DNA from: a virus
Lineage: Duplodnaviria > Caudoviricetes
DNA: 56,988 nt
Direction: 5' to 3' (one strand)
IMG/VR virus record: IMGVR_UViG_3300018080_000023
Location: 1-56,988 of that record
The notes under the pieces are model-generated. The model worked only from the letters and a program-made list of their open reading frames with translations. It searched no databases and was not told the DNA's origin. Both the position numbers and the translations under genes were made by a program. This document shows, piece by piece, positions 25,018 through 43,793 of this stretch (positions within the stretch are counted from its first letter, which is position 1; each line of letters opens with the position of its first letter).

Positions 25018-26862
25018 ATGGCTGACTTAACACCAACGGGACAAGTCCAAATGCTGGACTACTCTGCTCAAGAGGAGAAGGATCTCCAAGAGTGGATAGC
25101 TGACATCCGTAAGAACGCCGCTGATCTTGCCGCCCAGAAGAAAACCAAGCAGGAAGATGCCGAAAGGTTGCGTGCGGCCAAGGAGCGCCATCAGAGGGTA
25201 ACGGAAGGCAGAAGGCGTAAGGTCAAGATTAAAGAGACAGACTTCGACGGCGGCCAGACAATCAACAACATCAAAGTCAAGACTGATCAGGACGTCCAGT
25301 TCACAGGTGGCCAGACCTCAGGGTTGGAAGACATTCCGGTCACTATGAATGATATCAACAGTGTCATGCGCCAGATCATGGACCTCAGGATGATGATCGA
25401 GGAGTTGGAGCTCGAGTCGGACACCATACCGGAAGGATACGAGGATGCTGGAATAGGATATTCTACAGAGGATGAATGCCTCAGCAGTGATGCTGTACCG
25501 GACGCTGACATCGAATCCCCCACAAGCTACACAATAACGACCCGGTCTTCGAATGAAGACGAACTGATCCTCTATGGCATCGATGCTGATATTCTGATGG
25601 GAGGGGCAGATGTTGGCTGGATTGATCTTAATGCGACAGGCTATGGGATTCCACTGTATTACAAGCCTGATAATACGCTTTATTGGACAGGCCTAGATAC
25701 GCACTTCCCGGCCTCTGGAGATCCTGAAGAGTCACAGCAAAGCCTAGACCTAGACCCAGTCACTTCTCTGATGCAGATCCATAATATGAGCGCGGCGGAC
25801 GCCGACACTACGCTGTACGGAACTTCAGTCTGCTATCGGGATGATGTTAATGGGGAGATTTTTTTCGGGCAACTGTCTATCCCAGCCAACCCGACTTATG
25901 ATGATGACAGCATCAACGCAGATGGGGCTGGGGCTTGGCAGATACACAACTGGGATACAGGAACTCCAACAGGAACTATATTAAGTACTGACCAGTTGAT
26001 ATTCAGGAGAAGCGCCACAGCGTTATATTATGGCACGATAAATGATTTAACCGATTACATACATGGATGGCTCTATGAGGATGGCAGTCCTCTTGCTTCA
26101 GGAACCTACTGGGGATTAGGGCAGAGTTATGATATTGAGGGAAACGGATGCTGGGGGTCGAGCATAGGGCGGGGCTCCGAGTTCCCGGTGGGCGGTAATC
26201 AGGCTATAGATTTAGATGGCTCTATCCTGTACGACAACCTGAACAACCCTACCAATGACCAATCAATCAACTGGAACACTCGTACAGCTTACGACAAACT
26301 GGCCAATGGTGGCGCGGAAGTATTTAAATGGGACACAGCAGACTGGTATATTGACTTTGGTGATGACGAATGGAAACCCGCAACAGGTATGCAGATCAAC
26401 GCTACCGTAGTTGCTGGCGATGGTGTAGGCGCATTGCGCGTTCCCAATGGCGGTGCGTATCTGGCAGAGGGGCTGTATTCTGTTAAAGGTGGCGCAGATC
26501 AGGCTGGTTATTTTGTTAGCCCCACTTTCCAAGCATCGCTCTGCATCGAGGAAGAAATTGACACAAATGCCGCTGGCTACTTTACAGATGGGACAACAAT
26601 GGCACGAATTGTCGATGGTCAAGAAGCGGCCTATTTTGTGGATTCAACTGGCAATGTCGTCTATATTGGAAATGATAGTTATGCAATAGAAACTGTAGGA
26701 GATGTTTATTTCGGTGGAGATGTTCTTGTTGATGGAACTGCAGATTATATTCACGACGGCTACCGAGGCGCAACAAAAACAGACACGCTTCTTCGCATAC
26801 CCTGTGCTGACGGTAGCACTTGGGAAGGATATATCAGGGGAGGGATACTAACAACAACATGA
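25018..26862 (+). CDS. tail-associated structural protein
   Basis: N-terminal coiled coil followed by acidic beta-rich repeats (AGYF/AAYF); tail-module position. Confidence 0.6.
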   Translation: MADLTPTGQVQMLDYSAQEEKDLQEWIADIRKNAADLAAQKKTKQEDAERLRAAKERHQRVTEGRRRKVKIKETDFDGGQTINNIKVKTDQDVQFTGGQTSGLEDIPVTMNDINSVMRQIMDLRMMIEELELESDTIPEGYEDAGIGYSTEDECLSSDAVPDADIESPTSYTITTRSSNEDELILYGIDADILMGGADVGWIDLNATGYGIPLYYKPDNTLYWTGLDTHFPASGDPEESQQSLDLDPVTSLMQIHNMSAADADTTLYGTSVCYRDDVNGEIFFGQLSIPANPTYDDDSINADGAGAWQIHNWDTGTPTGTILSTDQLIFRRSATALYYGTINDLTDYIHGWLYEDGSPLASGTYWGLGQSYDIEGNGCWGSSIGRGSEFPVGGNQAIDLDGSILYDNLNNPTNDQSINWNTRTAYDKLANGGAEVFKWDTADWYIDFGDDEWKPATGMQINATVVAGDGVGALRVPNGGAYLAEGLYSVKGGADQAGYFVSPTFQASLCIEEEIDTNAAGYFTDGTTMARIVDGQEAAYFVDSTGNVVYIGNDSYAIETVGDVYFGGDVLVDGTADYIHDGYRGATKTDTLLRIPCADGSTWEGYIRGGILTTT

Positions 26863-29165
26863 AAAAGTTACTCTACACGATCTTGATTCTCACAGCCTGT
26901 ATCGTAAGTGCGGCAGATTACTATCCGCTGATGTATGATGCTGACAGCACCACGACGGTTTACTCGACATCAGGCGGAGCTTCCAATATTCCATCTGGCG
27001 CTTTCAGCGCATCCGAGACTGATCCGATAGCCTCGGCTTTGCTTCCAAGTTATATGCCCCTCGCAGGCGGTACATTCACAGGCGCAGTCTATACCACAAA
27101 AGACATGATAGACAGCCCACCTGCATCCAAAGAGTTTGCCACAGCCGAGTGGGTAAGAAGCCTATCGCTTGGCGGAACAGAATGGTATTTCACTACCAAT
27201 GTGACAAGTGGATTCGGAGAGAAGACTGCTAATTTTGTTGCGTTAGATAGTGTTGCCCCGACTAATATTTTTACCAATATAATCACAGCACCACTAACAG
27301 ATGATACATATTATGCAGGTGGAATAACCACACAGCTATATAGCGAGCTTCGTTCTCCTATTAGTTTTGTGATGTACTTATCAGTAGATACGGGGGGTTC
27401 TGTTCCAGTTAAGCCAGAGATTTATTATGTGTACGAGGGTTCTACCAATCAGCTTGGTGACTACGATGTGGGGTATCAAACAGTGACGGAGAACACCCCA
27501 ACGCTATACACCTTTGTTGTTCCGTTTGTTCAGCCTACAATTACAGGTGATGTGCATGTCGTTGCGTATTTGAAAACAGGAACAATAGGCTCACCGAATA
27601 CCAAGGATCTATATATCTATGGTGGTACTCCTTACGCCTCACACGTGGATGTTGAGGGCGCACCATGTGGTGAAACTGCGGCAGAGGTTCAGGCTAATCT
27701 TGATGTGCATACAGGATTAACGGGTACAAATGTACATGGACTCGGCACGATGAGTACCGAGACTGCTACTGATTACTACGCGGTGGCAGGTGATACGCTT
27801 GAGGGAACGATGGATACAGGCAATAACTGGATTTCCGGCGATGGTGACGCAGAGGGTATTCAGATAGATGATGCAGGCGGTATTGATTTTGGAAATCCCA
27901 ACGTCACATTCGTTCCTGTAGGATCTTCTCTTTCAACGTATGTTAGTGCGGCTTCTAGCGGAGACACCCTGATCTTAGGGGCTGGCTCTTACAGTGTCGG
28001 GTCGGGAATATCGGTTGGTAAAAATCTTACTATCATTGGACAGGGCAGAGAAACAACAACAGTTACTGGCACGGGGCAATACACTTTCCAAGCAGAGGCT
28101 AATTATACGCTGGCGCTGAGAAGCCTAAAGTGTGAAAACACAAACACTGGCGACAGTCGTGTGCTTGTTGGATTAAATTACTCTTTCCTGAAATGCGAAA
28201 ATGTGGATCTACTTAAAGACACAAGAGGTTCAGCCATAACAAGTACCCAGTTTGGTATCTATACAGTGTACCACGGCGCGGTAGACCTGCGGAATTGCAA
28301 TATTGATGTCCACACTTCAGGCGGTCAGGTCGCCTATGGTGTTGTTAACTATACCGATATAAACGGCGATGCCCGAGAGTCAACCAACTATCTTTATGAT
28401 TGCAACATCATAGTAACGGATACCAATACTGCTTCGGCTTCCACTGCTATCTTGAGAGCCTATAATGCTTACGACAACGGATCTTCAAATGCCATAAACG
28501 TGTACGCCTATAACTCCACCTTCATAGCAAGAGCCGCAGGAACAAACCAGTGTTGGGGTGTTGAGGTTGGAGTAGGCACAGCAACTGTTGCCGCAAAGGG
28601 AACTTTCTATAATTGTTATGCGGAGGCGATTAGCGATCAAGGCCTTCAGTGGGACTATGCAGGTTATGGTGGGGACATGACCCTCTATGGTTGCACAGCA
28701 TACGATATGACAAAGGCACAGCTAGGTAACGGCACAACTTATATGAATGGAGTTCAAGCCGCTGAGAGGATGCAACTTCAAAGCAGAGACTCCCATCCAT
28801 CCTCTTGGTCAGAAGGCGGCCAGATATATTGTGTGTCCAACGAGGTCTATGTGATGGACGCAAGCGGCACACCCACCGTTATTTCCCCACATCCAGATTG
28901 GGCAGGCGGAAAGGGCATCATCATGATTGAAGCTAACATCTATGAGGATGAGCTAACATATGTCACAAAAGAGGATCTAGTCGCTGTGATGACAGGAACC
29001 AAGCAACCAAATCCGAGTTTGCTGAAACGTATATCAACACCAGCTAACATGCGAAGAAACTGGGCTAAAGATCACCCGACTCCACCGCCAGTTCCGCAAC
29101 GACCGGAAATATCGATACCACCACAAGCAGACCCGCCCCCATTTCGGGATGAAGAAGAGGAATAA
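26859..29165 (+). CDS. tail spike/fibre with a pectin-lyase-like beta-helix and an N-terminal signal peptide
   Basis: ATGA overlap fixes the start at MKKLLYTILILTACIVSA; YMPLAGGT fibre motif; AASSGDTLILGAGSY...KNLTIIGQG beta-helix cap. Confidence 0.75.
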   Translation: MKKLLYTILILTACIVSAADYYPLMYDADSTTTVYSTSGGASNIPSGAFSASETDPIASALLPSYMPLAGGTFTGAVYTTKDMIDSPPASKEFATAEWVRSLSLGGTEWYFTTNVTSGFGEKTANFVALDSVAPTNIFTNIITAPLTDDTYYAGGITTQLYSELRSPISFVMYLSVDTGGSVPVKPEIYYVYEGSTNQLGDYDVGYQTVTENTPTLYTFVVPFVQPTITGDVHVVAYLKTGTIGSPNTKDLYIYGGTPYASHVDVEGAPCGETAAEVQANLDVHTGLTGTNVHGLGTMSTETATDYYAVAGDTLEGTMDTGNNWISGDGDAEGIQIDDAGGIDFGNPNVTFVPVGSSLSTYVSAASSGDTLILGAGSYSVGSGISVGKNLTIIGQGRETTTVTGTGQYTFQAEANYTLALRSLKCENTNTGDSRVLVGLNYSFLKCENVDLLKDTRGSAITSTQFGIYTVYHGAVDLRNCNIDVHTSGGQVAYGVVNYTDINGDARESTNYLYDCNIIVTDTNTASASTAILRAYNAYDNGSSNAINVYAYNSTFIARAAGTNQCWGVEVGVGTATVAAKGTFYNCYAEAISDQGLQWDYAGYGGDMTLYGCTAYDMTKAQLGNGTTYMNGVQAAERMQLQSRDSHPSSWSEGGQIYCVSNEVYVMDASGTPTVISPHPDWAGGKGIIMIEANIYEDELTYVTKEDLVAVMTGTKQPNPSLLKRISTPANMRRNWAKDHPTPPPVPQRPEISIPPQADPPPFRDEEEE

Positions 29166-43404: not shown

Positions 43405-43793
43405 CCAAATACATCAACACACTACTAATAGCGTTCATCTGCCTATGGATGAACAACGACGCAAGCACACACGACAAGCAGACGGTTAAGGCTGGACTGA
43501 ACCAGCTATTCAACGAGCCTGACCCAACCAACTACATCGACTACGCAGGACTGCCACAGTACAGGTCTAAGGACAATACCAACATTGTGGGACGGTTGCT
43601 TGTGATTGACGAGAGGCAGTTGCAGAACCTCAAGGTGAACCTCGACAACGTAACAGTTGCCAAGCTGAACACATGGAAGGACAACAACCTTGACAACCCG
43701 AACCATCTAAGGTGGGACAGGGGTGATTCGTGGCAGGACGTTGTAGCGTCAGAAGGGCTTGAACCTGTACCTAGCGAGGAGCCGCTACCATGA
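43401..43793 (+). CDS. hypothetical protein with a hydrophobic N-terminus
   Basis: MTKYINTLLIAFICLWM; ATGA overlaps. Confidence 0.65.
   Translation: MTKYINTLLIAFICLWMNNDASTHDKQTVKAGLNQLFNEPDPTNYIDYAGLPQYRSKDNTNIVGRLLVIDERQLQNLKVNLDNVTVAKLNTWKDNNLDNPNHLRWDRGDSWQDVVASEGLEPVPSEEPLP

Follow-up and report, generated by a model that had tools for sequence, protein, structure and literature searches.

The dipeptide Thr-Asn (TN) is in marked excess in six proteins with export leaders encoded by a tailed phage, and this excess, which is confirmed as real, is shown to be tied to leader proteins of the structural region and to recur in non-homologous proteins and in other phages. The phage is the IMG/VR record IMGVR_UViG_3300018080_000023, analysed as a single stretch of 56,988 bases (hereafter the window), which is the entire virus record, has direct terminal repeats and carries a completeness rating of 100%. 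To judge from the sequences, selection acts on TN as an order-specific motif of two residues in proteins that this phage and its relatives route through Sec; in the window its bearers are probably a fibre, a lectin, one protein close to the head and three small ones.

The Thr-Asn excess in six leader proteins

All protein statistics of the window take its 62 open reading frames (ORFs) as genes, and the null model shuffles each protein separately, 199 dipeptides with an expectation of at least 3 being testable in this way. Over the 1650 amino acids (aa) of the six leader proteins TN is found 28 times (9, 8, 4, 3, 2 and 2) where 11.53 are expected, an excess of about 2.4-fold (z 5.29) that was reached in none of 5000 within-protein shuffles. 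It is the top-ranked dipeptide, and any dipeptide with a z that high came up in only 0.16% of the shuffles; the pairs NT (12 against 11.62), SN (6 against 7.66) and NS (4 against 7.61) show no such excess. A sequence-only reading of the same DNA had counted TN by hand in the six proteins and in four leaderless comparators (3 in 869 aa, 2 in 614, 2 in 3322 and 3 in the 289-aa protein at position 21162), and had linked the pair to the leaders: all ten counts are exact, and the link holds in the window as well as in the relatives. Since the correction for composition leaves so large a gap between observed and expected, the abundance of Thr and Asn is insufficient as an explanation, and TN is far from equal to NT (28 against 12). 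Local composition is likewise rejected as the cause, as shuffling inside blocks of 20, 40 or 100 residues keeps the expectation at about 12 (11.7-12.5), none of 2000 trials reaching 28.

Elsewhere in the window TN stands at 26 against 29.85 in the remaining 56 proteins (15,229 aa) and at 16 against 17.0 in 11 leaderless proteins of the virion module, whose binomial split against the leader set has a p of 0.0017. The two leaderless tail proteins, one of 869 aa with a CBM_5_12 domain and one of 614 aa, have Thr and Asn contents (9.0-9.6% and 4.0-4.6%) similar to those of the leader proteins, without the excess of the pair, and the 3322-aa polyvalent protein has its two TN where 5.0 are expected. 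Among the six, the signal rests mainly on the proteins of 303, 142 and 768 aa (Table 1), of which only the first two are individually significant by a Poisson test (p 0.002 and 0.016, with 0.056 for the third), while the other three merely lean the same way, with TN at 2-3 against 1.0-1.5.

The signal belongs to the protein level. When the six window genes are taken with two genes of the related contig L001, the hexamer ACNAAY, which spells TN, occurs in the codon frame 56 times against 21.6 after codon shuffling, and in the other two frames 3 and 5 times against about 3.5; its reverse complement is without enrichment, and no Thr codon (of four) or Asn codon (of two) is absent from the TN pairs. 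An excess so confined to the codon frame is a protein-level signal, and the idea that ACNAAY acts in the DNA, as a binding or an avoidance site, has nothing for it besides the codon spelling; it is refuted by the frame analysis, and we give it next to no credence.

Leaders were called by a home-made heuristic, not by SignalP, on a basic n-region, a hydrophobic h-region 9-12 residues long and small residues ahead of the cleavage site. By this call and by reading of the sequences, the features of a Sec leader of the signal peptidase I (SPI) type are present in six of the six proteins; cleavage of these leaders is predicted, and gene position together with architecture suggests that the six proteins are part of the particle. 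The 303-aa protein is a concanavalin-A-like lectin, as established by a Laminin_G_3 profile match (E 7.8e-12, 46 bits against a cut-off of 27.6, and 48.9 bits in a further scan), by an AlphaFold2 (AF2) model with a predicted local distance difference test (pLDDT) score of 87.6, and by Foldseek, which pairs the model with jelly-rolls of lectins and of CBM40 (E 3e-9 for lectin domains). The 768-aa protein is fibre-like and contains a domain of about 220 aa common to fibres with other distal parts, be they LamG, Kelch or YadA-like. Its AF2 model is unusable (pLDDT 39.4), and its central part is probably a beta-helix, according to Atlas structure rows with TM below 0.5 that count as leads only. 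Neither the 115-aa nor the 142-aa protein has a Pfam or PHROG match. No significant similarity is found among the six window proteins, the best blastp E being 0.054, between the 192-aa protein and the lectin. These two share a stretch of 31 residues with two TN, 52% identical (residues 123-150 of the former, 51-81 of the latter). The small LamG subfamily is conserved best in this stretch, which is modelled with a pLDDT of about 95 and might serve both proteins for docking.

Recurrence in relatives and anatomy of the motif

Contig L001, whose capsid protein is 65% identical to that of the window, encodes a leader fibre of more than 1500 aa with TN 24 against 8.3 (NT 6) and, directly after the capsid gene, a leader protein with 4 against 1.6. 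Nine database homologues of the 768-aa fibre, which match it over only about 30% of its length, have TN 169 against 56.2 (NT 49), and in eight of them the parts beyond the shared domain account for 104 against 38.2. In nine metagenome loci the leader-called ORFs hold TN 145 against 54.6 (NT 47) and the remaining ORFs 54 against 33.9, and of these last 54 pairs 42 come from four ORFs whose 5′ end is truncated or whose leader escaped the heuristic.

When the 303-aa lectin was used for an exhaustive profile search, 149 representatives were obtained. Those of at most 330 aa with a leader (n=25) have TN 143 against 53.8, the larger ones with a leader (n=28) 259 against 186.7, and the larger ones without (n=52) 361 against 364. 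Another 44 of at most 330 aa were called leaderless: ten of these have a hydrophobic N-terminus and TN 53 against 20.1, and the 34 that lack one have 85 against 55.8, a figure made up (by row sums) of 41 against 13.2 in seven fragments or members of the subfamily tagged by the 31-residue stretch, and of 44 against 42.6 in the other 27. The few large LamG proteins of cellular type with a leader that were met are not TN-rich (P0034, 20 against 22.4; P0110, 3 against 6.6; P0139, 2 against 7.9). Four proteins of about 1400 aa with an N-terminal membrane anchor (P0047, P0051, P0058 and P0126) are moderately TN-rich, with 79 against 43 by row sum, the two that were scanned, P0051 and P0058, showing six LamG stretches; they may be cellular proteins of a lineage that shares the trait. 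When 71 leader-bearing relatives are divided by leader type, the 26 whose leader ends before Gln in the Bacteroidota-like manner (scored by a loose pattern) have TN 230 against 116.8, and the 45 with other leaders 432 against 214.5.

As for controls, in the Rhizobium phage MN988472, the nearest cultured relative by capsid protein (45% identity), TN is at 33 against 35.4 overall, and neither there nor in five other capsid-protein relatives (contigs L002-L006) are there Thr/Asn-rich leader proteins. In 100 kilobases (kb) of Escherichia coli K-12, 11 exported proteins, fimbrial subunits included, have TN 8 against 14.5 and the rest 46 against 52.1. The Porphyromonas phage BK068097 has five leader calls with TN 8 against 3.8 and 23 against 26.4 in its other proteins, a case in which the link to TN is not clear.

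These replications also settle whether chance could be at work, the dipeptide and the protein set having been chosen after looking. It is true that both were picked by eye and that three of the six proteins only lean in the expected direction, yet the family-wise shuffle fraction is 0.0016, and the excess was found again in sequences outside the original idea (169 against 56 in fibre homologues, 145 against 54.6 in metagenome loci, 143 against 53.8 in small LamG relatives). The replications refute the chance reading, which we regard as exceedingly improbable.

Once the leaders are cut from 29 leader proteins, the pooled remainder (16,277 aa) has TN at 355 against 126, a ratio of 2.82, while every other T-X pair lies between 0.66 and 1.25 and S-N at 1.21, so that Thr before Asn alone is abnormal; Asn is preceded by Thr in 355 of 1055 cases (34%), Thr making up 12% of the residues. 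The flanks are weakly defined, with Pro and Asn avoided after TN. An alignment of 59 small LamG sequences has 262 TN spread over 82 columns, of which 43 are private to one sequence, and once three conserved columns are set aside 177 TN are left against 119.9 (NT 124). For Thr next to Asn in adjacent columns, column frequencies predict 140.3 joint occurrences and 195 are observed, which is rank 1 among 340 dipeptides; kinship can inflate this measure of coupling, but equally so for other dipeptides. At TN columns the commonest alternative is SN, with 46 of 924. The excess is thus composed of a few conserved sites and of many that come and go.

Genome setting and host

The gene content is that of a tailed phage (Table 1). 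The entire stretch is present in one sequencing run, a sediment metagenome, which may be the source sample, and two further runs share 5% of its words.

Table 1. Features of the window, and of contig L009 where so marked; TN and NT are observed counts, with the expectation after 'vs'
Feature	Position	Strand	Remarks
Large terminase subunit, 908 aa	6491-9217		split by an intein (Hint and LAGLIDADG domains)
Small terminase subunit			encoded in the window
ClpP-like protease			encoded in the window
Portal, SU10-type	15246-17270		
Major capsid protein	19211-20140		phrog_267
192-aa protein with leader	20161-20739	+	directly after the major capsid gene; TN 2 vs 1.21
Adaptor, SU10-type	22019-22387		
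Leaderless tail proteins of 869 and 614 aa (comparators)	22399-26862	+	TN 3 vs 3.34 and 2 vs 2.51
768-aa fibre-like protein with leader	26859-29165	+	TN 9 vs 4.80 (p 0.056), NT 5
3322-aa polyvalent protein	31686-41654		ART-PolyVal (ADP-ribosyltransferase) and LPD23 domains
115-aa protein with leader	41705-42052	+	TN 3 vs 1.49
142-aa protein with leader	42065-42493	+	TN 4 vs 0.95 (p 0.016), NT 0
303-aa LamG protein with leader	42493-43404	+	TN 8 vs 2.20 (p 0.002), NT 1
130-aa protein with leader	43401-43793	+	TN 2 vs 0.98, NT 3
Eight-tRNA cluster	45738-46440		Met, Thr(tgt), Asn(gtt), Asp, Glu, Gln, Pro, Met
RtcB and RNA ligase	46441-47619 and 48442-49374	- (both)	RtcB E 2.4e-107; beside the tRNA cluster
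Two ORFs whose hydrophobic N-terminus is followed by a lipobox-like Cys, and SleB-type cell-wall hydrolase	1936-2202, 43790-44356, 53476-53868 (-)		
Contig L009: two Glycos_transf_1, Nucleotid_trans, RXYLT1_C, DUF7487	5850-13247		after the leader fibre and a small leader protein

In the tRNA cluster the genes for Thr(tgt) and Asn(gtt) adjoin each other; in Thr and Asn the leader proteins are about twice as rich as the remaining proteome. RtcB and the RNA ligase, lying beside the tRNAs, are likely a tRNA-repair set, which is perhaps directed against anticodon nucleases of the host. The SleB-type hydrolase also has a hydrophobic N-terminus, and together with the two lipobox-like ORFs it suggests a diderm host and a lysis set divided between two places of the genome.

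No host was found. Profile searches of genome contigs with the fibre and LamG alignments gave no relative, the cultured-phage collection had no match to the fibre or the lectin, and scans of viral contigs with the lectin, the fibre alignment, the LamG alignment and the 614-aa tail protein returned nothing. RtcB clusters in the Atlas come from Bacillota and Bacteroidota and are weak leads only. The sequence-only reading had pointed to Verrucomicrobiota or Kiritimatiellota as hosts, on the ground of a supposed similar bias in their exported proteins, a pointer for which there is no support.

What the pair may be for

We tentatively favour, at somewhat less than an even chance, the view that TN is a modification motif read outside the cytoplasm. 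The fibre, the lectin, the head-proximal protein and the small proteins would leave the cytoplasm by Sec; an enzyme of the host envelope, acting on Thr or on Asn, would then read TN, glycosylation being the obvious candidate for the modification, and selection would act to keep the exposed surfaces of the particle densely marked. The sequence-only reading had already cast TN as a sequon for a periplasmic modification by the host, and the patterns in the sequences keep this plausible. The sequon idea is favoured because the pair is specific in order and in frame, because Thr and Asn co-vary as a unit, and because many sites move between homologues. It also draws on the related contig L009, where the 8 kb that follow a TN-rich leader fibre on its downstream side hold at least four glycosyltransferase-type genes, which is suggestive.

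Much can be held against it. The L009 cluster could equally serve the conversion of surface polysaccharide, and phage genes that alter the surface polysaccharide of the host also adjoin fibre genes. The established sequons are D/E-X-N-X-S/T for the PglB type, the general N-X-S/T and, for O-glycosylation in Bacteroidota, D-(S/T)-(A/I/L/V/M/T). N-x-S/T stands at 22 against 18.5 in the six proteins and at 101 against 95.9 and 74 against 83.4 in larger sets, TN-x-[ST] rising just in step with TN; [DE]-x-N-x-[ST] is at 4 against 1.72 (p 0.09), and in the larger sets at 4 against 7.3 and 1 against 6.8; D-[ST]-[AILVMT] is at 8 against 8.83, then 32 against 31.8 and 32 against 33.9. None being enriched, all three are rejected as the cause. 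We know of no enzyme that reads T-N, and no glycosyltransferase family is found among the 62 window proteins scanned. As relatives with either leader type are TN-rich, a host enzyme would have to exist in several host groups. Finally, in the family of the 192-aa protein (P0162-P0167, five of the six having a leader or a cut leader at their start) the excess is weak, with TN 20 against 12.0 (p 0.02).

Comparable systems share parts of the pattern. With the bacterial and archaeal sequons the pair has in common a short order-specific motif, Sec-exported proteins and sites that shift between homologues; it differs in being T-N, in that none of the three motifs is enriched, and in the lack of a transferase in the window. 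A G-(T/S)-X motif has been proposed for Kustd1514, an S-layer protein of Kuenenia stuttgartiensis that is O-glycosylated (PMC5088730). It sets a precedent, in a lineage of uncultured type, for so short a motif, and is similarly a minimal Thr motif of an exported surface protein deduced from sequence context, the residue after Thr being free there and Asn here. In the six leader proteins GT is at 27 against 18.2 (p 0.018) and [GS]TN at 10 against 1.95; in two larger sets G[ST] has z 1.1 and 3.4, and in a larger set Gly at position -1 of TN is only weakly raised (32 against 23). Nothing ties the window phage to Planctomycetota.

Sec leaders on tailed-phage genes have been met before. One report describes, in prophages of Porphyromonas gingivalis, leader-bearing proteins that obey the Bacteroidetes Q-rule (PMC10367356), and another presents leaders ending before Gln as specific to Bacteroidetes (PMC5837995). 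In these prophages the Sec leaders of tailed-phage genes are fitted to the signal peptidase of the host, and several relatives of the window proteins also have Gln-type leaders; none of the six window leaders has Gln directly after it. BK068097, the one such phage examined, differs in having its capsid protein and a spanin among the five proteins called as leader-bearing, and in its lack of Thr/Asn-rich fibres. Virions of mycobacteriophages are glycosylated in the cytoplasm by glycosyltransferases that the phage encodes. If TN marks a glycosylation site, both cases are covalent sugar marking of particle proteins, with cytoplasm and phage enzymes on that side, leaders and no phage transferase on this one. 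The abstract of PMC11256854 speaks of two putative glycosyltransferases. In the limited literature collection that was searched, no paper deals with a Thr-Asn motif in exported phage proteins.

A serious rival to the sequon idea, doubtful as we think it on balance, takes TN as a motif of folding or stability, favoured where beta-rich proteins have to reach their fold beyond the cytoplasm and get no help from ATP-driven chaperones: Thr would end or start a beta-strand, Asn would cap a turn or a helix, and a hydrophobic residue would often follow two places on. The observations that speak for it count at the same time against a modification site. In the AF2 model of the lectin five of the eight TN sit at a boundary between strand and coil or at the start of a helix, two lying inside strands and one in coil; x-[LIVYF] comes directly after TN at 83 of 175 and at 59 of 159 sites, where about 26% is expected; and 85 of the 262 TN fall in three columns of the 59-member alignment, at reference positions 66, 104 and 296. 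Boundary position, hydrophobic context and conserved sites also fit a structural role. Ser as the commonest substitute of Thr at TN columns, an excess that is independent of leader type, and its retention in three relatives that appear complete and leaderless (P0133, P0050 and P0062, with predicted start codons; TN 18 against 6.9 by row sum) point the same way. Against the folding motif, unrelated folds all show the excess, whereas leaderless tail proteins with the same Thr and Asn content lack it, as do the large leaderless LamG proteins, which have the fold of the lectin, and the E. coli exported proteins with their Thr/Asn-rich fimbrial subunits. Nor are we aware of any structural rule that would generally favour T-N over N-T.

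It is also conceivable, if improbable in our view, that TN-richness was simply inherited with a pool of exported fibre and lectin modules exchanged among phages, without present selection on the pair. The fibre family is indeed modular, its shared domain being joined to LamG, Kelch or YadA-like parts, the short two-TN tag is common to the 192-aa protein and the LamG subfamily, and part of the excess lies in conserved columns. Against this stand the lack of detectable homology among the six window proteins, an excess just as strong beyond the shared domain of the fibres, and, in the alignment, the private TN columns together with a coupling of Thr and Asn beyond column frequencies, both of which point to repeated gain rather than inheritance.

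Particles of tailed phages are held to assemble in the cytoplasm from unmodified proteins, and here a whole class of structural-region proteins combines export signals with a statistically very strong motif. Should TN be a modification site, it would mean a new enzyme specificity as well as receptor-binding proteins that are exported and decorated. The fullest version of the sequon idea, which we consider unlikely, would have several uncultured tailed-phage lineages export their fibres, their lectins and a head-proximal protein via Sec, with an undescribed envelope enzyme marking Thr-Asn and the proteins joining the cytoplasmic particles only at lysis, once the membrane is breached. If true, these phages would follow a route of 'secrete, modify, then assemble', and TN would be a new sequon of two residues. 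Should TN instead be a folding motif, it would reveal an unrecognized rule for extracytoplasmic beta proteins. The 303-aa lectin, small and well modelled, suits the testing of both readings, and the TN motif offers a simple sequence marker for such phages in metagenomes.

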